DNA of 64,000 bases from Bryobacteraceae bacterium (GCA_965214005.1 CBDCAQ010000009.1:79758-143757), one strand, 5' to 3'; positions 48,319 to 63,717 are shown, counted from the first letter of the stretch. Numbers and translations: made by a program. Notes: generated by a model from the sequence alone, not told the origin.

Positions 48319-48954
48319 TTACTTTCTTCCGGACGCAGCTCGGATCCGCAGTGCGGAAGGTGCTAGCTGGCCTTGCTTCCGTGCGGTTTGTAAGGCATGG
48401 CCGAGCCATGCAAGATCGTCCAACATGACAGTGAGGTTTACCTGTAAGGCATGGTTTACCGGTTGACCAGCCTCATCAAATGCACCTGTCACAAACGGAA
48501 CTAGGGTCGGCGTTCTCACAGGGATTGCCTCTGTCTCCACCATGATCTGGGTCAGGTGTTCAACGGCTCTGGCGCCAGCGGTGGGGCCTAGGCTGTACGC
48601 TACGAACGCGACGGCCTTCTGCCGGAACTGGAAGGAGAAGAAAACCGAGTCAATCGCATTCTTCAGCACTGCCGGGATGCTCCGGTTGTACTCCGGCGTG
48701 ACAACGATGTATGCGTCGGCTTCTTTGATCTTGTCATTCCATCGCTTTACGAGCGGGTCTGAGTAGGTCGGGTTCGTGAAGTCCCCGACCGTTTCAATGG
48801 TTTCCTGAAACATCGGCAGCGGCCAGTCGCGCAAATCCAGCGTTTCTACCTCGAAAGCACCGTGCGCGATCAACGCAGGGACGCACCAACGGCAAACAAG
48901 TGCCGCATTCCTTCCCTCTCGGGTACTGGCAATGATGATCTGCAGCTTTAGCAT
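48319..48954 (-). CDS. NADPH-dependent FMN reductase family protein
   Basis: LQIIIASTREGRN and YIVVTPEYNRSIPAVLKNAID are typical NADPH-dependent FMN reductase motifs. ATG at 48954 follows AAGGAG. Confidence 0.8.
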   Translation of the reverse strand: MLKLQIIIASTREGRNAALVCRWCVPALIAHGAFEVETLDLRDWPLPMFQETIETVGDFTNPTYSDPLVKRWNDKIKEADAYIVVTPEYNRSIPAVLKNAIDSVFFSFQFRQKAVAFVAYSLGPTAGARAVEHLTQIMVETEAIPVRTPTLVPFVTGAFDEAGQPVNHALQVNLTVMLDDLAWLGHALQTARKQGQLAPSALRIRAASGRK

Positions 48955-49014
48955 GGATGCATGACTCCTTCTTCCTGCGTGCGCACGCCTGACGAAGGGG
49001 TGTCCGGCGCGTGC

Positions 49015-49061
49015 GTGTTGACACATCAACACCGTATACGTGAATTGTTGACGTGTCAACA
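49015..49061. promoter_or_regulatory. two related inverted repeats (candidate MarR operators) in the divergent promoter region
   Basis: GTGTTGA-CACA-TCAACAC lies at 49015-49032 and TGTTGAC-GT-GTCAACA at 49046-49061. They share the TGTTGAC half-site and lie between the FMN reductase and MarR genes. Confidence 0.45.
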
Positions 49062-49084
49062 TCAACCAACTAAGGTGGTCAGAG

Positions 49085-49522
49085 ATGCCCCCTGAGCTTA
49101 CAAAACAGGAACTCGACTCTTGGCTGAGCTTCCGCTACATGGTTGAGGAAACGAGCCTGAGTGTCAGCCGCGCGCTGATGGAAGCGACAGGAATGTCAGG
49201 CGGTCAGTTCGGCGTTTTGTCGATCCTGGCACGGATCCCGCAGAACGCTATGCGTCAACAGGAACTGGCAGACGCAATGCGTTGGGACCGAACTCGCCTG
49301 TCACACGTTCTTACGAGAATGGAGGCTCGCGGCTGGATCAAACGGATGAAGGTTAGAAAAGGGGCGACACTTGTTCTGCTTGCAGACCTTGGCGGGACAG
49401 AGCAGCGAACGGTAGCTCCTGTGCTCGCAGCGATCGTAAAGGAAAGGTTCTTCGATCGCCTGAGTCAGGCGCAGCTCGACACTCTGTTGGAGATTCGCAG
49501 AACCCTTGAAAGGCATGAGTAG
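49085..49522 (+). CDS. MarR-family transcriptional regulator
   Basis: 145 aa with a winged helix (FGVLSILARIP...QQELADAMRWDRTRLSHVLTRMEARGWIKR), divergent from a redox enzyme gene. Confidence 0.85.
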   Translation: MPPELTKQELDSWLSFRYMVEETSLSVSRALMEATGMSGGQFGVLSILARIPQNAMRQQELADAMRWDRTRLSHVLTRMEARGWIKRMKVRKGATLVLLADLGGTEQRTVAPVLAAIVKERFFDRLSQAQLDTLLEIRRTLERHE

Positions 49523-49757
49523 CGGTCCGTCGCGTGCGGAAGCAAGATTACGGGACTTCGTACTGGCGCACACGCGAAGGAAAAAGATCGCCCGCCGGCC
49601 CCTTTCGCTGGTGTCTTCAGGTTGGTACCGAATCTACTAGGCTTTGTGGACGCAATTGACGATGAAACCGCCATCAACGTGATTGGCGTTTCCGCCTGGC
49701 ATGCGTGCGCGTGCAGAAGAGATCGTTTTGGGACTCTCAACGCTTTACGCGGCAAGT

Positions 49758-50195
49758 AAACCAAACCTGCTAGGGAGCTCTGCCCCCACGCGCGAGCAAG
49801 CCGTTGGAAAATGCTTAGTGCATCTCCAGGTATTCGCTTCCTCCGGTCCCTCCGGGACCGCCGTTTCAGGGCACTTTTCCGCACAGCGTTGCACTTGCTA
49901 CCCCTCGCAGGCGTGGGCCTGCTCCAAGGCGTGTCTGAGCGCAGCCACAGCCAAACACTGAGAAGCGAGAAACATCCCATGAACACCACACAGAGCAGCA
50001 ACGCCACCACGAACAACGAAAACCAGCAACATCGCCACCCTTTCCGCACCCCCCCAAACCGCAGACTTCCCGCGAAGTCATCCAGGCCAACGTGCAACTC
50101 CTCATCGAGCAGCTTGAGGCAGGACACAGCGAAGGCCTCACCGCCTACCCCACGCTATGGGCCACTTTCACGACTACAGCTTCGGGAAACGGGAG
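49758..50195 (+). repeat. direct repeat copy A: diverged duplicate of the ardC leader and 5' coding region
   Basis: It aligns base for base with 59456-59875, including a 55-nt identical run (49867-49921 = 59565-59619). Confidence 0.8.
49979..50195 (+). pseudogene. truncated, frameshifted ArdC N-terminal fragment
   Basis: The same ATGAACACCAC start is used as the intact gene. A 22-nt and a 1-nt insertion put the conserved REVIQANVQLLIEQLEAGHSEGLTA segment out of frame. Homology ends after about 60 codons. Confidence 0.65.
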
Positions 50196-50549
50196 ATGAC
50201 CGAGAGCAAAATCAAGTCAGCCTAAAAGCTGCTCCGCCAGCGGTGTAAGCCGCGCGACCTGGCCAGTAATCTCGCGTTGCCGTCCTTACCTCTACCGCTG
50301 GATCCCCTCCTCCAGCCAAGCTCAGCGTGCTTGATTGTCCGTTTTTCTGACAGGACCCACTGTCTCTCTGCGCCCTCTGGTATCTCTCAACTCTCCATGA
50401 CGACCGGCTTGCAGGCGCAGCAGGCGAAAACCTTGGCCCACTTTGTAGCGGCTGGCTAAGAACCTAGCTGAAGAGGATTGAATCACTTAGCGATTTGGCA
50501 GAATGGCGGCGATGGAAATTGAGTGCTATCACCGCCCGACTGCTGCGGC

Positions 50550-53500
50550 CTACCAGCCGATGGTGAAGGTCATGTGCTCGGGCTGCTGCGTTGTGTTGGT
50601 GGTGCTTTGGTTATTGTTGTCGTCGTAGGAGAAGCCGTAGGCCAGCCCGCCGACAGAGTGGTTATGCCAAAATTGCGAGTAGAAGTTAGCCGGTGTGCTG
50701 GCATAGTAGCTCGCAGCGTTGGCCCAGTTTGCCGGCGCGGAGAGTACACCCCGGTTGATCGCCGAACAGATCTGGTTTTCGAGTTGAAGTTGCACAGCAT
50801 TCTCGTCCCCCTGTGCGGCGGAACTGCCCGCCACCCCGCTGGCCATGGTGCCGGCACAGCCTAGAACGTCCTGCGTGGAGGGCTGCTGGACGACGAAGCG
50901 CTCGCCAGCATGGGCCGCCGAGGGATTAGCCTCCTGAAACGTGAGGCTTGCTCCGCTTGCGGTGCCGGTGTAAGTGCGGCCGGACAGGGTAATGGAAAGA
51001 GGCTTCGTCTGGTAGCTTGCCCAGGCCTGTGCGATGGTGGCATCGAAGTAGTTGCCATAGGGAGCACCCGCTGCAAGTCCCATCTTCGCCGGAGAAAAAA
51101 TCCGGAGGTTAGACATAGCTGGCGGCTGGAACTGTAATGGCACTTCCTTTGCAAACTCCTGATCGAGTTGCGCAATCGACTCCGTGATTCCAGTCTGCTT
51201 GTGGAAGCTGCCGGCGTTAGCCCAGACATCGAGCAGGAGCGGCAAGCCGAACTGGTCCACCTGCGTGGTGTTGATGTAGACCGTGTTCGCGTTGGCCGTG
51301 CCTCCGTAGTTGAACTCGTACCAGTCGAAGTGCGTGTTGAAGTTAGGGTCTGAGCCGTTCTGCGGATTGGGTCCCGCATAGCCGTTTATCTTACCGTTCT
51401 TGTCTGCATAAACCTGTACGTAGAGCGGCGCTCCAAGCGAGATGTAGGCTCGCGCGGAGGTAAGCAAGGGCAGCTTGAGCAAAGTACTCTGCGCGAGGGT
51501 GAACGAGTAGTTGCCGTAGCCGGTTCCGTTGGCTGCGGTCAAATGATTCGCTGCGCTCGCATCGTTTAGCGTGAAATCGACAACCGAGCCGGCGGGAGTG
51601 ACATAAGCAAACTGTCCGTTGGCCGGGTCCATGCCGATGACCGTGACGTACACCTGGTTGTTGGCCCAGGCCCCGTGAGTGTTGTTGACGAGATCTACCC
51701 CGAGGAAGCCGGGATAAACCGTATAGCTGCCGACGGTGAGAGTGGCGGGCATGGAGGTGACGGTCGCCGTGCCGGCTGCATTGCCGACTGTGACCGTGAA
51801 CTGCGCGCCACTGTCGGCGGCCGTGAGTGTGGAGGTTGTGTAACTCGCAGCGGTTGCACCTGTGATGAGCGCGCCGTTACGAAGCCACTGGTAGGTGAAC
51901 GGTCCGGTGCCACCGGCTACGACGTTGAAGGTCGCCGTCCCGCCGATTGTGGCGCTCTGGCTGGCCGGCGGTTTCGTAATGCTGAGGGTTCCGGAAGGAG
52001 CTGTGGGGTTCGATCCGTAGACCTCTAACTCATAAAGCGAATAGCCGTACTGCGATCCACGGGTCGTACCGTACATGCGCACATAACGTGCGCTGATAGG
52101 GGTGAAGCTCAGGTTCTCCACCCCACCAAAGCCGGCTGACTGCGTAAAGACGGGCGTCCAGCTTTTGCTGTCGCTTGAAGCCTGTATCTGATAGGCCTTG
52201 CCGTAGGCTGCCTCCCAGCGCAGCACGACCTGGTTGATGGTGGTGGTGGTGCCCAGGTCGACGGCAATCCATGAAGGATCGACACCGGCTGCGGAGGCCC
52301 AGCGTGTCGTCTGGTCTCCGTCCACCGCGAAGGCTGCGCCGAGCGATGCTTCATCCTGACTGCTGCTGTCCGTAGCGGGTTTGTGCAAGGCAAGGTTGAG
52401 CGTGGTGGGCGTGGAAGAGGTGACAGTCAAGGCCACCGCCGCGGGTGTGGTGGTGCCGGAAGCGTTGGTCACCTGAACAGCAAAGGTACTGCCGCTATCG
52501 GCGGACTTCAGCGCAGGAGTGGTGTAGGTTGCGGCGGTAGCCCCGGCGATGACCACGCCGTTGCGCAGCCACTGGTAGGTGAACGGGCCGTTGCTGCCCG
52601 CGGTAACCGTAAAGGTTGCCTTAGAGCCCGCAGCGGCGGTCTGGGCTGCGGGTGCCGAAACGATCGCAGGCAGGTTGGCACCAAACGCCTGGAACTCAAA
52701 GAGCGAGTATCCGTACGCTGTCGCTCTCGTAGTTCCCTGCATTCGCAGGAAGCGTGCCGTGACGGGGCTGAAGTTCAGCGTTTCGACGCCACCGGTCCCG
52801 GCCGTTTGCGTGTACACAGGCGTCCAGTTCTGCGCGTCGTTCGAAGCCAGGATCTGGTAGGCCTTGCCGTAAGCCGACTCCCAGTAAAGCACCACCTTGC
52901 TGACCTGAGTGGAGGAGCCTAGGTCAACCTGGAACCAGGCCGTGTCAGAAAAGGCGGAAGACCAGCGAGTTGTGAGGCTGCCGTCTACAGCGTTGATCGG
53001 CGCCAGCGATGCGTTCTCGTCTCCGCTGCTGGTCGCGGTTTTGTAGAGCGCAAGGTTGGTGGAACCGGCTACAGGACTGGTGACCGTTACCGCCGCTACG
53101 GACGAGGTGACAGAGCCCGCGGCATTGCTGACGACCACGCTGTACTTGCCGCCGTTATCAGCCCCGTACAGCGAGGGTGTGGTGTAGGTGGCGGCGTTAG
53201 CATTCGCCACGCTGGCACCATTCAGAAGCCACTGGTAGGTAAAGGGCGCGACACCTCCTGCAACGACCGTGAACTGTGCCTGGGCGCCTGCCGTAACGGT
53301 CTGCGCGACGGGTTGGGTCACGATCGTCGGCAGGGCCGACGCATACACCTCGAACTCCCACAGTGAGTAGCCGTAGATGCTCGAGCGTGCCTGCCCGTTC
53401 AACCGCACATACCTTGCGTTGACGGCGTTGAAGGTGATGTTTTCCGTTCCACCAAGTCCGTTGGCCTGCTGGTAAACCGGCGTAAATTTGACCCCGTCGG

Positions 53501-56500
53501 GCGAAGTAAGGATTTGATATTTTGTTCCGTAAGCCCGCTCCCAGCGCAGTACCACCTGCCCAATCGCCTGCACGGAACCGAGATCAACCTGCAGCCATTC
53601 GGCATCGGCAAACGCAGAAGACCAACGTGAGGTCAGATCGCCGTCAAAGGCCGCGGACGGCGGAAGCACGTTGCTGTTCTCATCGCCGCTGCTGCTTGCA
53701 ACCTTCTTGAAAGCAAGGTTTGCGCCTGCAGGGATAGGACCGTTGCAGAAGCCCGGGATAGCGGCGTCCGTTGCGCCTGCGCTGCAGGAGCTGGGCTGCG
53801 TGGGCGCGACCGGCGCGGCGGTCACCGTCAACAACGCATGGGTGCTTGTCACCGTCGCCGTGGAGTTGCTGACGACCACGCTGAAGACCGCATTATTATC
53901 CGCTGAGGACAACGTCGTCGTAACGTAGGTTGAGGCCGTTGCGGACGCGATGGCCGCACCATTACGCAGCCATTGATAGGTTGGTGCGGGTGAGCCGGTG
54001 GCCGTGACGGCGAAGGCGGCCGTTTGTCCAACGGCCACGGTCGTGGGTTGTGGTTGAGCACTGATGACAGGTGCCTGCGAGACGAAATTTCCCGATGTAC
54101 AGAGGACTGCGCCGGGCCAGTTTTTGGTGACCTTATAGCTCGCGGTCCCGTCGAAGTTGACCAGCGCCGTCTCGGAAGCATCCTGCGGGTCCACCGTGGA
54201 CGTCCAAGTGTTCCACGTGCCGGGGAACGCGCAGGAAGCGTTGTTGCTGCCACTGATACCTAGCGCTTCAGACTGCGTGGGTACCCGCATGTTGATGCTC
54301 TTGCAGTAGTTCACCGCGTCTACGCCGGTGAACTGCGAGCCCGCTGCGCTGTCGGTCTGGATGGTCCGCGTCCAAGTGAGTCCGATAAGGTTATCGAGCA
54401 CCAGGGCGGCGTTGTGGGCATTGACCGTGTAGCGCTCGTTCGAGCCGCCGCATTGAGCCACGTCATACACCTGGAACTCAAGCAGGGAGTAGCCATACTG
54501 CGTTGCGCGCTGCAGGCCCAGCATGCGTACGTAACGCGCCTGCACGGTAGGAAAGTTAAGGGTCTCCACGCCGCCAGAGCTGAGAATCACCTTGGTCGCA
54601 TCCTGCCAGGCAGGGTTGGTCGCAGGGTCCTGATTGGTGTACTGGATCTTGTACTGTGCGGCGTAGGCGTTCTCCCAGTTCAAGATGACGGTGTTGAAGC
54701 CCTGAACGCTGCCGAGATCAACCTGCAGCCACGAGGGATCGACTCCCGCGACGACGGTTGCGGGCGGCTGGCCGGCAGAAGCAGAGGCCCAGCGGCTGTT
54801 GACGTTGCCGTCGACTGCGTTCTCCGCACCGAGGCAGTTGACGCCGCTGAGCGGAGGAGTGGTGGTCTGATCCGTGCAGGCGTTTTGCGTGCTGCTGGCG
54901 GTGGCTACACGGTTGAGCGCGAGGTTGATGCCGGGGGGCGCAAGCGTGAGCTGCGCCGCGGCACTGGTGACCGCCGTGTTGGCCGCATTGTTGACCGTGA
55001 GCGTATAGGAGCCGACCGTGGAAGCACTCATCGCGGGAACGTTGTAGGTGATGATGTTCGCGGTCTGCGTGTTGCTGACGAGGATGGAGCTGGCGCCTCC
55101 CGCGGGGGTGAAGTTCCACGAGTAGGTGAACGGCGCGGAGCCGGCCACGGTTGCGCTGAGCTGCACCGGCTGATTGACCGGAACGATTCTTCCCTGGGGT
55201 TGTGCGGTAAAGCTGACGGGAATTGGCGCGGTGACCGTAAGTGCGACGGTCGCGGACTGTACCTGGTTGAGTGGGTTCGTCACAACGACATAGACGCTCG
55301 AAGTGCCTGCCGACAGGAGAACCGGTGTGACGTACGTGCTCTGTGCGCCGTTTGCCACGGGAGCGCCGTTGACGAACCATTGATAGCTGAGTTGAGGCGA
55401 ACCACTGGCCGCAATTGTGAACGTCGCTGCCTGACCGACGACAGCGTTCTGTGACTGCGGCTGCAGGGTGATTGCCGCGTTGGCATCAGCGCTGACAGTG
55501 AGCTTTACAGCGTTCGAGGTGACGTTGCCGAAGTTGCTGGAGATGGTGACGCTGACGGTCTTGCCGTTGTCTGCAGCGGTGGTCGCAGCGGTGCTATAGC
55601 TCGTGCCGGTAGCCCCCGAAATCGCCGCCCCATTCACATACCACTGGTAGAGCAGCGTTCCCGAACCACTGGCTGCCACCGTAAAGGTTGCCGGGTAGCC
55701 CGAGGAAACGGAAGTATCGACCGGCGGCACGATGATCGATGGCGCCTGCGACTGCACCGGAGCAGCCGGTGCGACGGACGCAAGCTGGACACTGCCGCTC
55801 ACGAGCCCTGGCGCGGAGGCCGTGACCGTGACGCTGCCCGGAGCGAACGTGCTGCGCAGTGCGATCTTCTGCAGGCCGCCTTCGAAGTTCAACTCGGGAT
55901 CGCCGGGTGAGTGAAAGAAGGCATACGGCACGCCATTGACAACGTTGACGTTCGCCTTTGAGAACGCATCCTGGTAGTACGTGCTGACGGCGGGGTCTGC
56001 GACAAGCTGCTGGGTGCCGCCCATGTAGGTGGCCGGCCCGCTCACGCTGAAGGTGACGTTGTCCGCTGCAGTGGGAACCAGATTCCCTTGCGCGTCCTGC
56101 ACCTGCGCAACGATGAAGGCGGCGTCAGAACCGTTCGAGGTCCATTGAAAGCTGGTGCCGTCCGGCCGTGTCACGTTGGGCACCACGGAAAGCACGATCT
56201 TGTTTTCCGCGCCCGCGGTCGTGCGTGTGTCGGACGCTCCCTGCACCACATTGCCGCTCGCGTCGATACACTCCGCAGTGACGGTGCCCGGTGCCCAGTT
56301 CACCATCCAGTGAACCTGGCCCGGCATGGTGGTCACGTTCTGGTTAATGCTGTTGTTCGTCGCTATGTTCCAGGGATTGGGCGTCTGGTCGGCGAGCGCG
56401 GCGCCGGTCACCGGGTCCTTGGCGACGCCATTGATAAGCAGGCGGACGGCAGGGCAATTGCTGAAGGCGTTTTCCTGCAGCGGCGTGCCCGCAGTGTACT

Positions 56501-58634
56501 GGTACGCGCGATTCCAATGGTGCGCCAGCGCGACCACCGGCTTGATGGAGTACGGCACCCAGTTGGCCTGGTAGATGTAGTAGAGCAGCCGTGGAAAGCG
56601 GTTCTGATCGACCATGCTGTAGCCCAGGCTGCGCACATAGTTCGTCATGCTCGCGTTGTTCTGGTACTCGGCATAGAGAGCGACTTCGCCCGGCGTATCG
56701 GCAAAGTACCACTGAGCCATGCCGAAGGTATTGTTCGCGCGGCCGTCGCGCCAGTCGTTTAGGTAGCCGTTGGCGAACGCGAGTTCGTAGTCCCAGGCAA
56801 GCCCGCGCCCAGTGCCCACGTTATCCCAGTACTCTGCGCCGAAGGCTGGATTGTTTGGGTTCTGCTGCTTGTTGCCAACCTCGCAGCCGGCGCCATCACA
56901 CTCATCGATAAAGGCGTACTGCGGTGAATAGGCGCGAGAGGCCTGCTGCCGCGGGTTGATGTTGTCCCACTGCTGTCCAAGTGCGCCAAGCTGCTGGGCA
57001 AGTGCGAGATTGTTGCCGCCGTTATCCATCTCCCAGTCCAGGATGGACGGATGGCTGCGGTCGCGGATGATCATGTCGCGGTGCAATTCCTGCTTCAACT
57101 GCGCGTCGTCTGCAGATGGATTCGTGAACGCGCCTTCCCCGTCGCCACTTGGCTGGTCGATCATGACGCCGTAAGCATCCGCTGCTGCGACAAACTCCTC
57201 ACTGCTGGTGGAGTGGCCGGGCCGCCAGATGTTGCCGCCGCTCGCGGCAAATTGCGCCAGGTCGCGCCACTGCTGCTCATCCGGGACAGAAGATCCCAGC
57301 GCAGGATAGTCGTATCTACCGGAGCCACCCCATAGGTACTGCGCATGGCCATTGAAGTAGGGGAAGTTCGCGTCCCACGTGATGGTGCGGATGCCCAGCG
57401 GGCTCACGGTTGCATCGACCACGACGCCATTGACGCTGACGATGTGATACACGCGATACATATAAGGCTTGCCGTACACGGAGTTGTTGGGGTACCAGAG
57501 CGTTGGATTCGCGATGGTAATCTTCTGCTCGAACATGGCCGCCGGCGTCGACGGAAAGGTGGCCGCAGTCATTGGAGCGACTGCCTGCATAAGCGGGGGT
57601 GCAGTCAGCACGACGTCGCCCAGGGCATCCACCACCTGCGTTGTCAACGTAACCTGCTGGGTCACCGCGGACTCGTTCAGCACATTGGTTTGTACATCGA
57701 CCACGGCCGAAGCAGCCGTCGCGGTCCCCTGCGCCGCAGGGACCTCGGAGACTGTACCCACATACGTTCCCCAGGTCCTGGTGTTCGAGTACACGTTGAG
57801 TGGAATATGGATCGCATTGGTCAGCACCAGGAAGACGTTGCGAAAGAGCCCCGCCATGGCTTGTCCGAAGCGGAAGGCACCTGAGAAGTTTGGCTGCTCA
57901 AACCAGCTCGAAGCCCTCGAGACATCGACCGCGATTACGTTGTCCGTCACGCCGTCTGCATGGAGATACGGAGTCAGATCGACCACGACCGGAACAAATC
58001 CGACGACATGCGTTGCCTGTGCGTCCGCCGCCACCTGACTGATGCCCTTGAGCAGCGTACCGTTGATGTATACCTGCACGCCGGTGTGCGTGCCTTCGAG
58101 ATTCAACAAGAACTTTTGCGCCGCATATTTGCTGTCGATTTTGAAGTGCAGACGATACCAGTTGTCGTTTCCGGTGAGCGAACCCTGGCCGCCGCCAGAC
58201 GCCTGGTTGATAAACGTGCGCTTGATGTTCGCGTCGTAGGGCAGACCAACCTGCTGCCAGTTCACACTGCTGTCCGAGTTCTCCACAAACCCCGGAGTCG
58301 CATAGCTTGGCGAGGTCTTCGAGTTCTCATACCACCATTGGCTCTGCGGCGCGTTGGAGTCGGTCGCCGCGTTTCCGATCGACTGCGGCACGCCTGCGGA
58401 CAGATTGATCGTCATGCGCTGCGACAATGGCACAGAGACTTCTTTTTGCTGCGCACGCGCAAATGTCAAAGCGCTCAGCAGGAAGACAATCCAGATGATT
58501 CGTCTGAACGTAAGCCTGACACGTAATGAACAAAACTCCGACGGGAGCTCTGGTTTTGCGAGGCGATTGGCGATTGAACAGCTGTGCCATGAGGCGTCTG
58601 ACTTGTCGTTGCATGCGGATGATCCGTCTGGCAT
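50550..58634 (-). CDS. giant secreted multidomain carbohydrate-active protein: GH2-like module, Ig-like x7, F5/8 type C (discoidin/CBM32-like) x4, DUF1566-like, C-terminal GH64-like beta-1,3-glucanase module
   Basis: ATG at 58634 follows AGGAGA; the ORF is open from 58682. A signal-like segment (RRIIWIVFLLSALTFARAQQ) is present. GH2 motifs: NWYRLHF, RDRSHPSILDW, GAEYWD. Repeated units: FTYQWLRNG Ig units and NAVDG...TRWSS...W.QVDLG discoidin units. GH64-like tail: DWYEFNYGG, NTTQVDQFGLP, GGLAYGFSYDD. Confidence 0.8.
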   Translation of the reverse strand: MPDGSSACNDKSDASWHSCSIANRLAKPELPSEFCSLRVRLTFRRIIWIVFLLSALTFARAQQKEVSVPLSQRMTINLSAGVPQSIGNAATDSNAPQSQWWYENSKTSPSYATPGFVENSDSSVNWQQVGLPYDANIKRTFINQASGGGQGSLTGNDNWYRLHFKIDSKYAAQKFLLNLEGTHTGVQVYINGTLLKGISQVAADAQATHVVGFVPVVVDLTPYLHADGVTDNVIAVDVSRASSWFEQPNFSGAFRFGQAMAGLFRNVFLVLTNAIHIPLNVYSNTRTWGTYVGTVSEVPAAQGTATAASAVVDVQTNVLNESAVTQQVTLTTQVVDALGDVVLTAPPLMQAVAPMTAATFPSTPAAMFEQKITIANPTLWYPNNSVYGKPYMYRVYHIVSVNGVVVDATVSPLGIRTITWDANFPYFNGHAQYLWGGSGRYDYPALGSSVPDEQQWRDLAQFAASGGNIWRPGHSTSSEEFVAAADAYGVMIDQPSGDGEGAFTNPSADDAQLKQELHRDMIIRDRSHPSILDWEMDNGGNNLALAQQLGALGQQWDNINPRQQASRAYSPQYAFIDECDGAGCEVGNKQQNPNNPAFGAEYWDNVGTGRGLAWDYELAFANGYLNDWRDGRANNTFGMAQWYFADTPGEVALYAEYQNNASMTNYVRSLGYSMVDQNRFPRLLYYIYQANWVPYSIKPVVALAHHWNRAYQYTAGTPLQENAFSNCPAVRLLINGVAKDPVTGAALADQTPNPWNIATNNSINQNVTTMPGQVHWMVNWAPGTVTAECIDASGNVVQGASDTRTTAGAENKIVLSVVPNVTRPDGTSFQWTSNGSDAAFIVAQVQDAQGNLVPTAADNVTFSVSGPATYMGGTQQLVADPAVSTYYQDAFSKANVNVVNGVPYAFFHSPGDPELNFEGGLQKIALRSTFAPGSVTVTASAPGLVSGSVQLASVAPAAPVQSQAPSIIVPPVDTSVSSGYPATFTVAASGSGTLLYQWYVNGAAISGATGTSYSTAATTAADNGKTVSVTISSNFGNVTSNAVKLTVSADANAAITLQPQSQNAVVGQAATFTIAASGSPQLSYQWFVNGAPVANGAQSTYVTPVLLSAGTSSVYVVVTNPLNQVQSATVALTVTAPIPVSFTAQPQGRIVPVNQPVQLSATVAGSAPFTYSWNFTPAGGASSILVSNTQTANIITYNVPAMSASTVGSYTLTVNNAANTAVTSAAAQLTLAPPGINLALNRVATASSTQNACTDQTTTPPLSGVNCLGAENAVDGNVNSRWASASAGQPPATVVAGVDPSWLQVDLGSVQGFNTVILNWENAYAAQYKIQYTNQDPATNPAWQDATKVILSSGGVETLNFPTVQARYVRMLGLQRATQYGYSLLEFQVYDVAQCGGSNERYTVNAHNAALVLDNLIGLTWTRTIQTDSAAGSQFTGVDAVNYCKSINMRVPTQSEALGISGSNNASCAFPGTWNTWTSTVDPQDASETALVNFDGTASYKVTKNWPGAVLCTSGNFVSQAPVISAQPQPTTVAVGQTAAFAVTATGSPAPTYQWLRNGAAIASATASTYVTTTLSSADNNAVFSVVVSNSTATVTSTHALLTVTAAPVAPTQPSSCSAGATDAAIPGFCNGPIPAGANLAFKKVASSSGDENSNVLPPSAAFDGDLTSRWSSAFADAEWLQVDLGSVQAIGQVVLRWERAYGTKYQILTSPDGVKFTPVYQQANGLGGTENITFNAVNARYVRLNGQARSSIYGYSLWEFEVYASALPTIVTQPVAQTVTAGAQAQFTVVAGGVAPFTYQWLLNGASVANANAATYTTPSLYGADNGGKYSVVVSNAAGSVTSSVAAVTVTSPVAGSTNLALYKTATSSGDENASLAPINAVDGSLTTRWSSAFSDTAWFQVDLGSSTQVSKVVLYWESAYGKAYQILASNDAQNWTPVYTQTAGTGGVETLNFSPVTARFLRMQGTTRATAYGYSLFEFQAFGANLPAIVSAPAAQTAAAGSKATFTVTAGSNGPFTYQWLRNGVVIAGATAATYTTPALKSADSGSTFAVQVTNASGTTTPAAVALTVTSSTPTTLNLALHKPATDSSSQDEASLGAAFAVDGDQTTRWASAAGVDPSWIAVDLGTTTTINQVVLRWEAAYGKAYQIQASSDSKSWTPVFTQSAGFGGVENLSFTPISARYVRMYGTTRGSQYGYSLYELEVYGSNPTAPSGTLSITKPPASQSATIGGTATFNVVAGGTGPFTYQWLRNGALITGATAASYTTSTLTAADSGAQFTVTVGNAAGTATVTSMPATLTVGSYTVYPGFLGVDLVNNTHGAWANNQVYVTVIGMDPANGQFAYVTPAGSVVDFTLNDASAANHLTAANGTGYGNYSFTLAQSTLLKLPLLTSARAYISLGAPLYVQVYADKNGKINGYAGPNPQNGSDPNFNTHFDWYEFNYGGTANANTVYINTTQVDQFGLPLLLDVWANAGSFHKQTGITESIAQLDQEFAKEVPLQFQPPAMSNLRIFSPAKMGLAAGAPYGNYFDATIAQAWASYQTKPLSITLSGRTYTGTASGASLTFQEANPSAAHAGERFVVQQPSTQDVLGCAGTMASGVAGSSAAQGDENAVQLQLENQICSAINRGVLSAPANWANAASYYASTPANFYSQFWHNHSVGGLAYGFSYDDNNNQSTTNTTQQPEHMTFTIGW
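51732..54077 (-). repeat. in-frame tandem coding repeats (Ig-like + discoidin unit, period about 660-740 bp, 3.5 copies)
   Basis: The recurrent DNA block CCACTGGTAGGT(G/A)AA(C/G)GG occurs at about 51888, 52570 and 53230, with a diverged copy near 53969. It encodes the P-F-T-Y-Q-W motif on the minus strand. Confidence 0.7.
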
Positions 58635-59455
58635 AAGTCTCCTGTGAAGAACTCGTCGTAAGCAAAAAGTGTCGGTCTCCAACTGAGTGGAGTGTGTCTA
58701 ATCCGGCGTACGCAGGCATCTGCGCTCCCCCCAATGGCGCTGGGAGCCGGTTCAGCTTCGCGTGGAGTCACTTTGGTCAATTGGCGATCTTCCTGCTCGT
58801 CTCGCAAGTGAAGTGCCAAATGAAACTCGCTCGGCCAAATGTTCCGGATTTGAATAAAGCGCCACGATTGCTGTTTATTGCTGACAGTTTGTGAATCGCC
58901 GAACGCGCCGGCCAGCAAGAGCACTTCGGTGCTTGGCAAGTTTTACTGCAGCAGAGGAAAAAGGTTCGTAGAAGGGCCCAGCAGAGCTCGCATGCTGCGA
59001 GCCAAACGACGCCTCCATAGCGCTTTGCCCGTGGAAGCAATGATTGTTCTTTCGATATTGATCATTCTCTTCGGGCTTTCTCTGGCGTGCATTTGGTGCT
59101 CTGCTCCTTGCGGAGTGCCAGGGCGTGCCTGCTCGATCGGTCTTCTCGCACTTCGGGCCGCCTCCCAAGCCGCTTCGTTTGTCGCGAACTTCAGACTAAC
59201 CATACTAGTGAGAACTAGGTCTCGATATCTTCTGTTCATCTGCACGACGAACATAGCGACCGCACACAAAGCACCTCCGCACATCCTCTTCAAACCCTAG
59301 TCCACCCCAGCTCTGAGGGGGGAATGCTTTCCCCTGTCTTCAGAGTGCGCCGGCACACCACGCTGGCGGACTCTTACGCCACCCCTTCGAGCGGGGATAC
59401 CCCGCAGCGCCCCAAAGCGATCTCTTCTGCACGCGCACGCGCGTGCCAGGCAAGG

Positions 59456-59875
59456 AAACCAAACCTGCTAGGGAGCTCTGCTCCCACGCGCGCGCAAGCC
59501 GATGGAAAAAGCTCCGTGCAGCTCCAAGTATTCGCTTCCTCCGGTCCCTCCGGGACTGCCCTTGCAGGGCACTTTTCCGCACAGCGTTGCACTTGCTACC
59601 CCTCGCAGGCGTGGGCCTGGGCCAAGGCGTGTCTGAGCGCAGCCACAGCCAAACCACTGAAAAGCGAGGAACACCCCATGAACACCACCGAATCCACCAC
59701 CAGCAACATCGCCACCCTTCCCGCCGCCCCCAAGCCTCAGACTTCCCGCGAAGTCATCCAGGCCAACGTGCAGCTTCTCATCGAGCAGCTTGAGGCCGGA
59801 CACAGCGAAGGCCTCACCGCCAACCTCACCGCTATGGGCCGCTTCCACAACTATTCCTTCGGAAACATCCTGGAG
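59456..59875 (+). repeat. direct repeat copy B (intact ardC leader and 5' coding region)
   Basis: See copy A at 49758-50195. Confidence 0.8.
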
Positions 59876-60634
59876 ATTGCACGGCAGCGGCCAGATGCAA
59901 CCCGCGTTGCAGGTCTGTATGCGTGGAACCAGCTAGGCCGCAAGGTTATCAAGGGCCAGAAGGGTATCCGCATCCTCGCCCCGATGATTGGCACCCGCAA
60001 GAAGAAAGACACCGAGGCCAACAAGAGCAAAGACCCCGCAGCCGTCAACAGCCCCGTACTGGTCGGATTTCGCGCCGTCTACGTCTTCGACGTGTCGCAG
60101 ACAGAGGGTGCAGAGCTTCCCGCATTCACCGAGCGCACCAGGGGAGAGGTTGGAGAGTACCGCGAACGCCTCATCGACTTCACCATCGCCCAGGGTATCG
60201 AGCTTGAGTTCAAGGAGAGCATAGCCCCCGCACTTGGCATGAGCTACGGCGGCCGCATCGCCATCCTTCCCGGTCAGGAACCAGCCGAGGAGTTCAGCAC
60301 CCTTGTTCACGAACTCGCACACGAGATGTTGCACAAGGCAGAACGCCGCACCGCCACCACCAAAACCGTACGCGAGACAGAAGCCGAGGCAATCGCCTTT
60401 GTAGTTTCGCAAACCATCGGCCTTGACGCAGGACGCGCGTCAGCCGACTACATCCAGCTTTACCACGGCAACGCCGCACTCCTCACCGAGAGCCTAGAGG
60501 TCATTCAACGCACCGCAGCCCTGATTCTCTCCGCACTGGAAACCAAGGAAGAAGCCGAGCAGCCGGAAACCGCACCCACAACCGAGCAGCACACCACCAA
60601 CGCCACCGACGCCGTACTCGCGGAGGTGGCCTAG
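59678..60634 (+). CDS. ardC: ArdC-like antirestriction protein (N-terminal ssDNA-binding domain + HExxH metalloprotease domain)
   Basis: FHNYSFGNILEIARQRPDATRVAGLYAWNQLGRKVIKGQKGIRILAP (ArdC-N/DUF1738-like) and TLVHELAHEMLH. ATG at 59678 follows GAGGA. Confidence 0.8.
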   Translation: MNTTESTTSNIATLPAAPKPQTSREVIQANVQLLIEQLEAGHSEGLTANLTAMGRFHNYSFGNILEIARQRPDATRVAGLYAWNQLGRKVIKGQKGIRILAPMIGTRKKKDTEANKSKDPAAVNSPVLVGFRAVYVFDVSQTEGAELPAFTERTRGEVGEYRERLIDFTIAQGIELEFKESIAPALGMSYGGRIAILPGQEPAEEFSTLVHELAHEMLHKAERRTATTKTVRETEAEAIAFVVSQTIGLDAGRASADYIQLYHGNAALLTESLEVIQRTAALILSALETKEEAEQPETAPTTEQHTTNATDAVLAEVA

Positions 60635-61050
60635 TGCAAACCATTCTGGACATCCTCAAGAAGGCCGGAGGTTGGCACCCCGGCCTGTACCTCAAAATTG
60701 ACAACGCGCCATTTATGCAGCTTGTCATTGAAGCACTGGACGAGTCAGGCCCAATGGGTCTCCCCGCCCTTTCAGTCGCGCACTACGGCACACAGAACGG
60801 CGACGCGATGCGCGACCCGGAGATGTGTTTCGAGCTTGGCCTGTACGGGGGAGTTCACCTGGTTCCCTTCTACTGGCGCAACGATTACGCCGGAGCCGAG
60901 GAGTGGAGCCGGAACGTGGTCGCAAACCGCTACGTGCACCTGTTTGAACTCCACACCCAGCACCAGCGCTTTGCTGAGACGTGGGACAGGAACCTGCGTC
61001 AGCAGGGCTTTATCGAGGCATTCAACCCGCAGAAGCACGTTCGCGGCTAA
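60634..61050 (+). CDS. hypothetical protein, translationally coupled to ardC
   Basis: The GTG start overlaps the ardC stop (TAGTG). The 138-aa acidic protein has an HYGTQNGDAMRDPEM motif that I associate, from memory only, with small proteins next to ArdC genes on mobile elements. Confidence 0.5.
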   Translation: MQTILDILKKAGGWHPGLYLKIDNAPFMQLVIEALDESGPMGLPALSVAHYGTQNGDAMRDPEMCFELGLYGGVHLVPFYWRNDYAGAEEWSRNVVANRYVHLFELHTQHQRFAETWDRNLRQQGFIEAFNPQKHVRG

Positions 61051-61125
61051 CCCCTTCCCCGGAGCGGAGGCAGGGCAGCGCAGCCGCTTACAACCACCAC
61101 GCCACCAGCACACAGGAGAACCACC

Positions 61126-62814
61126 ATGCAGAACAGCAGCGAATTCCAGTACATCGCCATCGACACCATTCACGAATCAGCCACCAACCCCCGCCGCACG
61201 TTCGACGAGTGCAAGCTCGGCGAACTGGCCGAGAGCATCCGCACCAATGGCCTGATTCAGCCCATCACGGTACGGCCCAACTCGCAAGGCTTCGAGATCG
61301 TCGCAGGAGCCAGGCGCTTTCGTGCCGCTCAGCTTGCCGAACTGTTTTCCCTTCCCGCCCGTATCGTCGACATCAACGACGCCCAGGCGCTTGAGTGGCA
61401 GTTGGTCGAGAACTCGCAGCGGGTGGACGTTCACCCCTACGAAGAGGCCCAGGGCTTCCAGCGGCTGCTGGACATGCCCGGTTACGACGTGGCAACACTG
61501 GTCGAGAAGTCAGGCAAGAGCGCAGCCCACGTTTACGCCCGTCTGTCTCTCCTGCAGCTTGTGCCGTCCATTGCCGAGGCATTCAGCGCCGAGCGCATCA
61601 CCGCCTCCCACGCCAACCTGCTAGCCCGTCTCCCGCAGGAGGCACAGGCTAACGCATACGAGCAGTGCTGGCGCAAGGATTGGCAGGACAAGGAACCGCA
61701 CCTGCTACCCGCCAAGCACCTTTCTGCGTGGATACAAACCAACCTCTACCTTTCCCTTGCCGAAGCCCCGTTCGACAAGGAAGACCCCACGCTAAACCCA
61801 CCCGCCGGAGCTTGCGTTACTTGCCCCCGCCGCAGCGGATTCAATACGTCCCTGTTTGCCGACGTGCAGGGCGACCAGTGCCTGGACGCCCCTTGCTTCC
61901 AAACCAAGGTAAACGCCCACATCGATTGCGAAGTTGCCGCCCGTCCCGAGCTGGTGCAGATCGAGAACGGATACCGTGCCCCGAAAGAACAACGCCCCGG
62001 AGCCGTACGCAGCGGAACCTATCGCGAAATCGACACCACCCACCAGAACCCCGACGCGGAACCCATCGCACCGTGCGAAGCCGCAAAGCCCGCCATCATC
62101 GTCTACGGCAAGCGCGTAGGAACCACCCTCACCGTTTGCACCGACAACAACTGCCCCGTTCACGATCCCCGCGCCGCCGCCAAAGCAGCCGAACACCCCG
62201 CCCCGGTCATGCCGCCAGCACCCCCGGCAGAAACCGAGGAAGAGGCCGAAGCACGGAAGCAGCAGCACGAGGAGCAGCGCAAAGCACACGAAGCCGAGCA
62301 GGAGCGCAGGGCCGAGGAGTTCAAGCAGCAGCAGGAGCAGGAAGAGAAGCGATACGAGGCAGAACAGGCCAAGCGCGAGAAGCAGCGTAAGGCACGGCAG
62401 GACACGTTCGAGCGCATCATCGCCGCAGCCCCGGCCAGCTTCACCGCCGCACAGTTGCGGGTTGTCCTCCGCGCCATCGTCAACCTTGACCCTTACACCT
62501 TCGCCGATGATCTGGCCGAGGATATCGCCGCCGATAACGAGAACGAACAGCGCAGCGCAGAAGAACTGCTGCTGGCCACCATCGACGCCACCGCCGATGA
62601 GAAGCTGACAGCCTTTGCGCTTCGCCTCGCCCTCTCCGGTCACGTTGGCATTCCGCGCGAGAACGAGTTCGATTTCCTCACCGAAGCCGAAGCCGCTTTC
62701 GCCCCACCCCAACCGAAGAAGAAAGCTCCGCCAGCTAAGGAGAAGAAGCCCACGCTGGTCAAAACCTCGCCCGTCAAGAAAGCCAAAGTAGCAAAGAAGC
62801 AGATTGCGGCCTAA
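61126..62814 (+). CDS. ParB/Spo0J-like nuclease-domain protein with Cys cluster and charged coiled-coil
   Basis: The N-terminus has GLIQPITVRP....FEIVAGARRFRAAQLA (ParB N-domain). It also has CVTCPRRSGFN....GDQCLDAPC plus CTDNNCP, and an E/K/Q/R-rich stretch. ATG follows GGAGAA. Confidence 0.8.
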   Translation: MQNSSEFQYIAIDTIHESATNPRRTFDECKLGELAESIRTNGLIQPITVRPNSQGFEIVAGARRFRAAQLAELFSLPARIVDINDAQALEWQLVENSQRVDVHPYEEAQGFQRLLDMPGYDVATLVEKSGKSAAHVYARLSLLQLVPSIAEAFSAERITASHANLLARLPQEAQANAYEQCWRKDWQDKEPHLLPAKHLSAWIQTNLYLSLAEAPFDKEDPTLNPPAGACVTCPRRSGFNTSLFADVQGDQCLDAPCFQTKVNAHIDCEVAARPELVQIENGYRAPKEQRPGAVRSGTYREIDTTHQNPDAEPIAPCEAAKPAIIVYGKRVGTTLTVCTDNNCPVHDPRAAAKAAEHPAPVMPPAPPAETEEEAEARKQQHEEQRKAHEAEQERRAEEFKQQQEQEEKRYEAEQAKREKQRKARQDTFERIIAAAPASFTAAQLRVVLRAIVNLDPYTFADDLAEDIAADNENEQRSAEELLLATIDATADEKLTAFALRLALSGHVGIPRENEFDFLTEAEAAFAPPQPKKKAPPAKEKKPTLVKTSPVKKAKVAKKQIAA

Positions 62815-62871
62815 CACGGCAGGGGGCCACGCGGCCCCCTCGCTTTCAACAACGCAGAGCCAGGTGCAGCC

Positions 62872-63717
62872 ATGGACAAAACAGAACACACTATCCGCCA
62901 GCTACTCGCCGCACTTTCCGCCCAGGGCTACGATATCGGCGTCCTCACTGATGCAGGGATGTATCGCGTCGAAGCCGCGCCAGCTTCCCGCGTCCTGCGC
63001 ATGCTTCCCTTCCTCAAGCATCGCAATGCCCACGGCGCACACATCTACCTACGCCCCACCGGAGAAAGCTGCTACACGCTGCTGGACGATCTCACCGCCG
63101 CAACTCTTGCCCGCCTTACAGTCGAAGGCTACGCCCCCGCCGCCGTAATCGAGACAAGCCCCGGCAGCTTTCAGGCTTGGCTTAGACACCCGCAGCTGTT
63201 CCCCAAAGAGCTTGGCACCCTCGCCGCGAAAACTCTTGCCGAGCAGTTCAGCGCAGATCGCAGCGCCGCCGATTGGCGCAGGTTCGGTCGTGCCCCCGGC
63301 TTCACCAACCGTAAGCCGCAGCACCGCAACCCGCAGGGCTTTTACCCTTTCGCCCATCTTCGCAGTTCTACCGGAACAGTCTTCCCCGAAGCCGACGCCT
63401 TCCGCGCCCGATTGCTCACGATCCAGCAGAAGGCAGAAGCTGAACGCGCTGCCATGCGTCTCAGCTTCGCAGCCCGGCCCTTCAGCCGGTACGCCGCGCC
63501 CGTCACGCTCTCCCGCTTCCGTTCGTCGCCGAACTACCATGGACGGCCAGCCGCCGCAGATATGGCCTTCTGCATCGCCGCCGCCGCTCAAGGTTGGACC
63601 GAGTCCGACATCGCCGCCGCACTCAGCCGCGAATACCTCTCCCGCAATGCCAGCCGCTCCCGTCAAGCCGCCTACATCCGTCGCACACTTTCAAAAGCTC
63701 TTCGTTGGGCATCCTGA
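62872..63717 (+). CDS. RepB-type DNA primase domain protein (RSF1010 RepB'-like)
   Basis: NAHGAHIYLRP, LLDDL, PAAVIETSPGSFQAWL and GRAPGFTNRKP match the RepB_primase family motifs as I recall them. Confidence 0.65.
   Translation: MDKTEHTIRQLLAALSAQGYDIGVLTDAGMYRVEAAPASRVLRMLPFLKHRNAHGAHIYLRPTGESCYTLLDDLTAATLARLTVEGYAPAAVIETSPGSFQAWLRHPQLFPKELGTLAAKTLAEQFSADRSAADWRRFGRAPGFTNRKPQHRNPQGFYPFAHLRSSTGTVFPEADAFRARLLTIQQKAEAERAAMRLSFAARPFSRYAAPVTLSRFRSSPNYHGRPAAADMAFCIAAAAQGWTESDIAAALSREYLSRNASRSRQAAYIRRTLSKALRWAS

Follow-up and report, generated by a model that had tools for sequence, protein, structure and literature searches.

A decayed ardC leader repeat beside a giant glycosidase gene on a putative conjugative plasmid of an acidobacterium, probably the scar of a fusion between sister elements

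Introduction

Genes of plasmid leading regions lie on one strand, with structured single-strand promoters ahead of them (Samuel et al., 2024; PMC11541004). The described systems closest to the locus reported here are the leading region that carries ArdC in IncW R388 and the corresponding region of pACIX903 (NC_015058), a 188-kb conjugative plasmid (MOBF, MPF_T) of Granulicella tundricola MP5ACTX9, where ardC is followed by a hypothetical gene, a RepB primase gene and a single-stranded DNA-binding protein (SSB) gene. Here we analyse a 64,000-nucleotide stretch of DNA from a Bryobacteraceae bacterium (hereafter the window), in which two diverged copies of the ardC leader and gene start, copy A (49751-50188) and copy B (59449-59865), bracket a segment of 9.7 kb with a giant gene for a secreted glycosidase. 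The ArdC protein encoded from copy B has the ArdC N-terminal domain and the HExxH motif of its R388 counterpart, its gene lies on one strand with ParB-like, primase and SSB-like genes beside a MOBF (TrwC)/type IV transfer system, and the gene order of pACIX903 recurs at ~74% DNA identity.

The window corresponds to C9:79758-143757, C9 being a contig of 147,105 bp in a genome of 14 contigs, one of which is a separate chromosome contig of 5.77 Mb; positions refer to the window unless a contig is named, and the structure was read from the assembled contig sequence. C1, C6 and C12 are co-resident contigs of the same genome. Retrieval based on ArdC gave 80 Acidobacteriaceae loci (L-numbers), many of them within chromosomes, including L019, a locus from a Granulicella metagenome-assembled genome (MAG) of another species that is 91.8% identical to the C9 backbone over 4.5 kb. 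The set of relatives comprised one genome per species.

Results

Copies A and B have the same orientation and were recovered alike by MAFFT, by a repeat finder and by blastn (E 1e-145). Their global alignment holds 379 matches, 36 mismatches and 25 gap columns, which amounts to 86.1% identity with gaps counted and 91.3% with gaps ignored. A preliminary description of this DNA had put the two same-orientation repeats at roughly 80-90% identity, and the alignment bears this out; both intervals given there were recovered, with each end shifted by 7-10 nt. The best-conserved part of the pair is its first ~228 nt, which is non-coding (93% identity over 206 nt by the repeat finder), and the longest identical run measures 55 nt. 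The same description had copy B running into an intact ardC gene, copy A frameshifted and cut after about 60 codons, and the giant gene on the minus strand as the sole substantial gene between the two copies, all of which agrees with our analysis.

The gene that begins in copy B (ATG 59678) encodes a protein of 318 aa with a match to ArdcN (PF08401, E 9.7e-9, 35.9 bits against a cut-off of 22.6), and its translation contains HELAHEMLH, an instance of the HExxH motif; a weak match to Peptidase_M78 (18.8 bits) lies below the cut-off of 22. Copy A has an equivalent ATG at 49979, but a translation begun there is not in the ArdC frame. At least three indels break the frame (copy A carries one of 22 nt and two of 1 nt), no intact ardC frame was found, and homology ends at about codon 63 of the copy B gene, before most of the ArdcN domain; a Pfam search of the ardC part of copy A returned no domain match. 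Copy A is a scar without function. The giant gene is not mobilised by the repeats, which are no gene-moving device and whose only foreseeable activity is a rare RecA-dependent loss of the 9.7-kb segment via the 55-nt identical run.

Directly after copy A stands a feature that is absent from the preliminary description, namely the last 172 bp of a Tn3-family transposon (50187-50358). The homology to ardC stops at 50187/50188, from where the sequence is homologous to another part of the sister plasmids. The first portion represents the last ~45 codons of a serine resolvase gene (tnpR) and is decayed, with an in-frame TAA and indels; it also matches the ends of genes annotated as 'recombinase family protein' in Pseudomonas and Aeromonas plasmids. 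The second is a 38-bp terminal inverted repeat that can be aligned from end to end with the paired terminal repeats of complete elements on two sister contigs (C12:108278-112021 and C6:36411-40153) and also matches the terminal repeats of an annotated Tn3-family transposon on a Pseudomonas plasmid. On C6 and C12 the full-length tnpR genes give Resolvase and HTH_7 matches and adjoin DDE_Tnp_Tn3 transposases, and these complete transposons are 3.7 kb long and hold no passenger genes. A search of C9 for a partner terminal repeat, a tnpA fragment or any other part of this transposon found none. The C9 stretch therefore has the terminal repeat of the family and lacks the set of transposase, resolvase with res site and two ends; it is a relic, not an element, and is unable to move or resolve anything. 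As a separate observation, tnpA of both complete transposons appears as two open reading frames (ORFs), one with the DUF4158 part and one with the DDE part (C6:36446-39404; C12:109027-111986), which are either real frameshifts or assembly consensus errors.

The truncated ardC and tnpR sequences join at a 4-nt microhomology, AAAC, common to both parents, which we read as the mark of an illegitimate deletion. Because the outer end of the terminal repeat (50358) faces the giant gene, the transposon interior lay to the left and the giant gene was target DNA and not cargo. This orientation contradicts the proposal that the giant gene is the passenger of a Tn3-family transposon, or of a repeat-bounded module inserted upstream of ardC, which we regard as quite improbable even though the transposon end lies only 190 bp from the stop codon of the gene, the gene is patchy within the genus (2 of 25 genomes, searched with its GH64 part) and the family as a whole has variable cargo at the site upstream of the ardC leader. 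With the outer end of the repeat turned toward it the gene falls outside the transposon, no partner repeat stands on the other side or elsewhere on C9, and the complete 3.7-kb copies are passenger-free. Copy A, moreover, ends at an arbitrary coding position within ardC and is joined to tnpR by microhomology, and the option of captured cargo raised in the preliminary description is disfavoured on these grounds.

The descent of copy A was examined in a tree of eight leader plus 5' sequences, which groups A, B and L019 in one clade (100/100 support), with A on a long branch; pairwise identity is 97% between B and L019, 90.6% between A and B and 91.3% between A and L019. At 51 sites B and L019 share a state that is derived with respect to five outgroups, and A shares the derived state at 40 of these and shows the outgroup state at 7, where chance reversion would give 1.15 (P ~2e-4), although three of the 7 are adjacent and may be a single event. 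No B-specific state is shared by A. Since A retains these 7 outgroup-state sites and shares no B-only state, it split off before B and L019 separated from each other, and since L019 belongs to another species, A is not a recent local copy of B. Judged from these comparisons, copy A appears to come from a sister element and not from a local duplication. Part of its distance is decay, A alone among 27 leaders having a broken helix 1 in the conserved leader structure described below.

A duplication of the ardC 5' region in situ on C9, for example together with insertion of the giant gene, after which copy A diverged fast as a pseudogene, is in our estimate very unlikely. Such an event would have to predate the split from L019, given the 7 outgroup-state sites and the lack of shared B-only states, and an older event would demand that L019 had lost its copy. 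The right end of A is also fused to the transposon relic, where no duplication junction is seen. On the other side of the account, A, B and L019 do form one tight clade, most of the differences are specific to A (18 derived sites against 7 ancestral), as expected of a decaying copy, and live leaders are so strongly constrained that relaxed constraint alone would inflate the distance of A.

C9 carries a full conjugation set, with matches to TrwC (3e-84), TrwB_AAD_bind (1e-82), VirB4-like, TrbI (1e-46) and T2SSE/VirB11 (1e-42) proteins, so that the relaxase, coupling protein and type IV secretion ATPases and core of a MOBF/MPF-T system are found on one replicon. The anti-phage genes qatABCD are split over the contig ends: the 3' end holds QatA profile positions 4-305 and the 5' end positions 364-642 on the same strand, followed by qatBCD. 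Because the halves of qatA sit at opposite contig ends on the same strand, with qatB, qatC and qatD next, C9 can be closed into a circle, and the sister replicon C6 likewise closes through its parB ORF. By this sequence evidence C9 appears to be a circular conjugative plasmid of ~147 kb of an acidobacterium, separate from the chromosome. C1, C6 and C12 share its backbone at 72-82% identity, which makes four related backbones in this genome, a Granulicella-like one of the Acidobacteriaceae, and the nearest database records are plasmids of G. tundricola (pACIX903) and Acidisarcina. Related backbones also lie within chromosomes, for example four in that of one Granulicella MAG and one in that of Terriglobus roseus DSM 18391; the backbone family exists both as plasmids and as integrated elements.

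The preliminary description had framed the locus in terms of integrative and conjugative elements (ICEs), which a circular conjugative plasmid does not fit, though relatives that share its backbone are found in chromosomes. That two ICEs integrated in tandem or one after the other at a single attachment site, the older one then decaying, is an unlikely source of the repeats. It draws on the chromosomal copies in the Granulicella MAG and in T. roseus DSM 18391, on the single tyrosine recombinase of the C9 backbone (C9:13642-14157) and on a sharp left edge that C9 and L019 have in common at 59227-59229, beyond which their flanks are unrelated. That edge, however, is a truncation within a SRAP gene with no recognisable att site, copy A lacks the 220-nt terminal segment (59227-59448) expected at the end of a tandem element, and C9 is a separate circular replicon. 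Neither repeated att-like sequences nor a tRNA were found in the window. The two options of successive integration with decay and of recombination between elements, also put forward in the preliminary description, are thus upheld in general form, A being of a sister lineage and the relics decayed, and weakened in the strict form of tandem ICEs.

We consider it probable that two sister elements fused and that one deletion then removed the redundant backbone, which is ordinary plasmid mosaicism. The identities of the pieces, their junction and their decay, the orientation of the terminal repeat, the placement of A in the tree, the plasmid context and the step in base composition are as described in this section; from them we infer in what order the events came, by what type of fusion the elements joined and which parts the deletion removed. 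Parent 1 would have read MarR, leader, ardC and backbone, and parent 2 would have read Tn3-type element, giant gene, leader, ardC and backbone, each with further sequence ahead of it. Fusion would most likely have come about by one homologous (Campbell-type) crossover within the highly conserved leader of ardC or close to it, and less likely through a Tn3-type replicative cointegrate, for which a second transposon copy would need to have been lost. An illegitimate deletion at AAAC would then have run from about codon 63 of the incoming ardC to about codon 141 of tnpR, the resolvase gene 190 bp downstream of the giant gene, taking out the second backbone together with tnpA and res of the transposon. 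The product would be the observed order of MarR, leader A, truncated ardC, truncated tnpR, terminal repeat, giant gene, leader B and ardC, both relics having decayed thereafter. Across C9 60-139 kb no second fusion junction and no second-backbone relic was found; the cointegrate version needs such a junction, whereas the crossover version needs none, which agrees with the lack of further backbone relics in the cargo. With two events, crossover and deletion, the latter version is also the most economical.

Several observations weigh against this fusion. No intact element of the A lineage occurs among the 80 related loci, and two metagenome scans, one with an A-specific 24-mer and one with a 38-mer common to A, B and L019, gave no hits. 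GC content at third codon positions (GC3) steps at copy A from 0.62-0.66 on the left to 0.72-0.75 in the giant gene and backbone, which speaks for the fusion, but this is weak evidence, as the high GC3 of the giant gene (0.748) is partly intrinsic (0.716 in the orthologue of a congener). The left edge of copy A, finally, bears an inverted duplication for which the fusion does not account and which needs an extra event. Absent from the preliminary description, it occupies 49688-49732, a stretch of 45 nt to the left of copy A, and its source, 59411-59459, takes in a small palindrome (hairpin X) and the arm upstream of it, together with the first 11 nt of the repeat; because the source overlaps the start of the direct repeat by ~11 nt, the segment has been duplicated in inverted form and not simply inverted. 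The duplication beside copy A is centred on the palindrome, and among the compared elements no other locus has an inverted hairpin X arrangement beside the leader.

A misassembly in which two related plasmids were joined at their ardC repeats would bypass the fusion altogether, and the genome does offer four related backbones and several transposase genes that look frameshifted, possibly through consensus errors. Chimeric joins, however, use near-identical repeats and leave full-length sequence on both sides, whereas the two copies here are only 86-91% identical and A is truncated, with unique decayed sequence on both sides. We regard an artefact as most improbable.

The leader itself is strongly structured. 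The ~95 nt before the ardC ribosome-binding site, conserved across at least 30 elements, fold into two hairpins that show compensatory changes; in the alignment 99.4% of cells are paired, and covariation is 0.114 against 0.038 in shuffled alignments, with 0 of 500 shuffles scoring as high, while shifted-register controls collapse. Of the 27 leaders, copy A alone has unpaired helix 1 cells. B and L019 have 97-99% identity in the leader and 88-97% in the coding sequence. Folding of a single 281-nt leader sequence gave z scores of -0.5 on the plus strand and -1.8 on the minus strand, a search of the ardC leader against Rfam matched no family, and around copy A we found neither sigma-70-like promoters nor a convincing terminator. 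The two-hairpin element may be a regulator in the 5' untranslated region (5'-UTR) or a novel single-strand promoter of the leading region.

Hairpin X (GCACGCGC-AC-GCGCGTGC) precedes the leader of copy B. Its stem has 6-8 bp and is followed by a near-invariant motif, GCAAGGAAACCAAACC, that overlaps the first bases of copy B; it occurs once per plasmid, standing among the matches listed once in C1, once in C6 and in each of the two copies on C9. Past it (window 59411-59500) come a second covarying hairpin, GGGAGC/GCTCCC in some elements and GGGAC/GTCCC in others, and then an invariant GCGCGCGCAAG. The hairpin X/GCAAGGAAACCAAACC region may be a site of protein binding or of origin type. By eye, GGCAC...TTGCA has the wrong spacing for a sigma-54 reading, which we rejected. 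Hairpin X was also considered as an origin of transfer (oriT), on a likeness to MOBF oriTs, and is not claimed as one; under the principle set out in PMC11541004, the one-strand gene orientation would place nic on the other side of the leading region, which argues against such a role.

The features of the locus are collected in Table 1.

Table 1. Features at and around the two ardC leader copies (window positions unless a contig or locus is named)
Feature	Position	Strand	Basis or remarks
FMN-reductase/MarR divergent pair	48319-49065; 49085-49522	minus; plus	Pfam FMN_red 6e-35, MarR_2 2e-10
Inverted copy of hairpin X segment (59411-59459)	49688-49732	minus	repeat finder, 91% complementary; local alignment
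Copy A leader relic, non-coding	49751-49978	plus	two-hairpin element kept; GG>CT breaks two helix 1 pairs
Two-hairpin element	49869-49981 (copy A); 59567-59680 (copy B); L019:9890-10003		homologous stretches in at least 30 loci
Copy A ardC 5' pseudogene, ~63 codons' worth, truncated	49979-50188	plus	alignments, translation
tnpR 3'-end relic, HTH_7 region	50187-50320	plus	72-75% identity to C6 and C12 tnpR 3' ends
38-bp Tn3-family terminal inverted repeat	50321-50358	minus	outer end 50358 toward giant gene; unique in window
Giant secreted glycosidase gene, ~2,700 aa	50550-58682	minus	Pfam: GH2 + Ig + 4x F5/8 type C + GH64
Left edge of live backbone: first ~13 codons (MCGRYVRRADEQK) of SRAP/YedK-like gene	59227-59267	minus	cut off at 59227
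Hairpin X + upstream arm	59411-59448	plus	compensatory stem variants in 9 elements, by eye
Copy B live leader	59449-59677	plus	conserved two-hairpin element, GGAGG ribosome-binding site
Intact ardC, 318 aa	59678-60637	plus	ArdcN match, translation, 80 homologous loci
Rest of leading-region module: DUF6908, ParB-like, RepB-type primase	60634-63717	plus	Pfam; order as in pACIX903
Split SRAP gene	C6:73672-73172 + 66425-66198; L024:9570-9212 + 4081-3854; L035:4930-4439 + 3012-2785		

Copy B stands at the left edge of the leading-region module, in which ardC, DUF6908, parB and the RepB primase gene are followed further on by an SSB-like gene. Homology to L019, L024 and C1 begins at 59227-59229, inside a SRAP/YedK-like gene that is complete in C12, C1, L024 and others and that has in L019 the same truncation at 59227 as in C9. 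In three elements this gene is split near codon 165 by multi-kb insertions (Table 1), which suggests a recurrent insertion point.

The giant gene product has a signal-peptide-like N-terminus. An orthologue of ~3,200 aa, with 71% identity in the GH64 part, was seen in a congener (G007:C35:33510-43109; L101/L102), where the neighbouring genes encode BNR/sortilin, methyltransferase and HlyD proteins and no mobile-element genes lie nearby. When the DNA of the copy A region was compared with 40 relatives, nothing was matched beyond the genome itself except the 3' end of the giant gene in one congener. To the left of copy A, the FMN-reductase and MarR genes are the last of a cargo tract of low GC3 (0.62-0.64 for this pair), and a homologous pair with 79-84% identity is present in another ardC element (L032). 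The part of the window from 1 to 49522 (C9:66.5-129 kb) was seen to hold ~60 kb of glycoside hydrolase genes (GH125, GH42, GH3 and others) with genes for TonB-dependent receptors; this ~60-kb glycoside hydrolase cargo is plasmid-borne and has no counterpart on the sister plasmids.

A complete qatABCD operon (C9:146002-147105 joined to C9:1-3710), with an apparent frame break of qatA at the join, was likewise seen within the plasmid's leading region. It is bracketed by a second pair of direct repeats, C9:144592-145536 and C9:3818-4766, each consisting of a structured leader and an ssb-like gene, in which identity is ~80% over the left ~350 nt and 98-99% over the right ~570 nt, a layout like that of the ardC repeats and younger. 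Because this second, younger pair brackets qatABCD, events that leave bracketing repeats recur on C9.

Discussion

The plasmid is a self-transmissible replicon of a soil acidobacterium with a glycoside hydrolase load of more than 60 kb, including a dual-glycosidase of 2,700 aa. Our data indicate that this load was at least partly built when related elements fused and one backbone was then lost, a route by which polysaccharide degradation can be pooled and spread. Mobile elements of acidobacteria have barely been studied. The mechanism itself is textbook plasmid evolution. For annotation, copy A and the adjacent 172 bp are pseudogene and relic features, and the contig is a plasmid.

We offer as a tentative and on balance doubtful idea that structured leaders, those of ardC and of the ssb-like gene, are preferred landing pads for homologous recombination, where sister plasmids and ICEs of Acidobacteriaceae swap and stack cargo. 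If true, this would account for the giant gene and the qatABCD island each being bracketed by repeats made of a leader and a gene start. In a bolder variant, hairpin X with GCAAGGAAACCAAACC may be a relaxase or recombinase site, and the inverted duplication may record a strand-transfer accident there.

Set beside the described ArdC leading regions, C9 differs in its host, an acidobacterium, and in its leader, which is a short two-hairpin structure with no similarity to Frpo or ssi and without recognisable -35/-10 boxes, and which departs from the published promoters in sequence and size. The relic beside copy A recalls Tn3-family transposons of the type in which tnpA and tnpR diverge from a central res site (gamma-delta/Tn1000-like), since its 38-bp terminal repeat comes right after the helix-turn-helix (HTH) region of the resolvase. 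Complete 3.7-kb copies with paired repeats, DDE_Tnp_Tn3 and a serine resolvase are present on the co-resident plasmids, but C9 keeps the last 172 bp only, in decayed form, with no transposase, res site or partner repeat on the contig.

Cointegration followed by deletion, as known from mosaic plasmids, differs from the case of C9 in that here the fusion is read from a single scar, its partner was not found and the left edge carries an inverted duplication. What the two have in common are diverged direct repeats of the backbone around foreign DNA, one of them truncated, the loss of redundant functions, and several co-resident related plasmids as potential partners. In the stretch of pACIX903 examined there is no duplicated ardC start, giant glycosidase gene or Tn3 relic; beyond the gene order already described, pACIX903 resembles C9 in that it is a plasmid, complete and circular, that carries metabolic cargo upstream of ardC.

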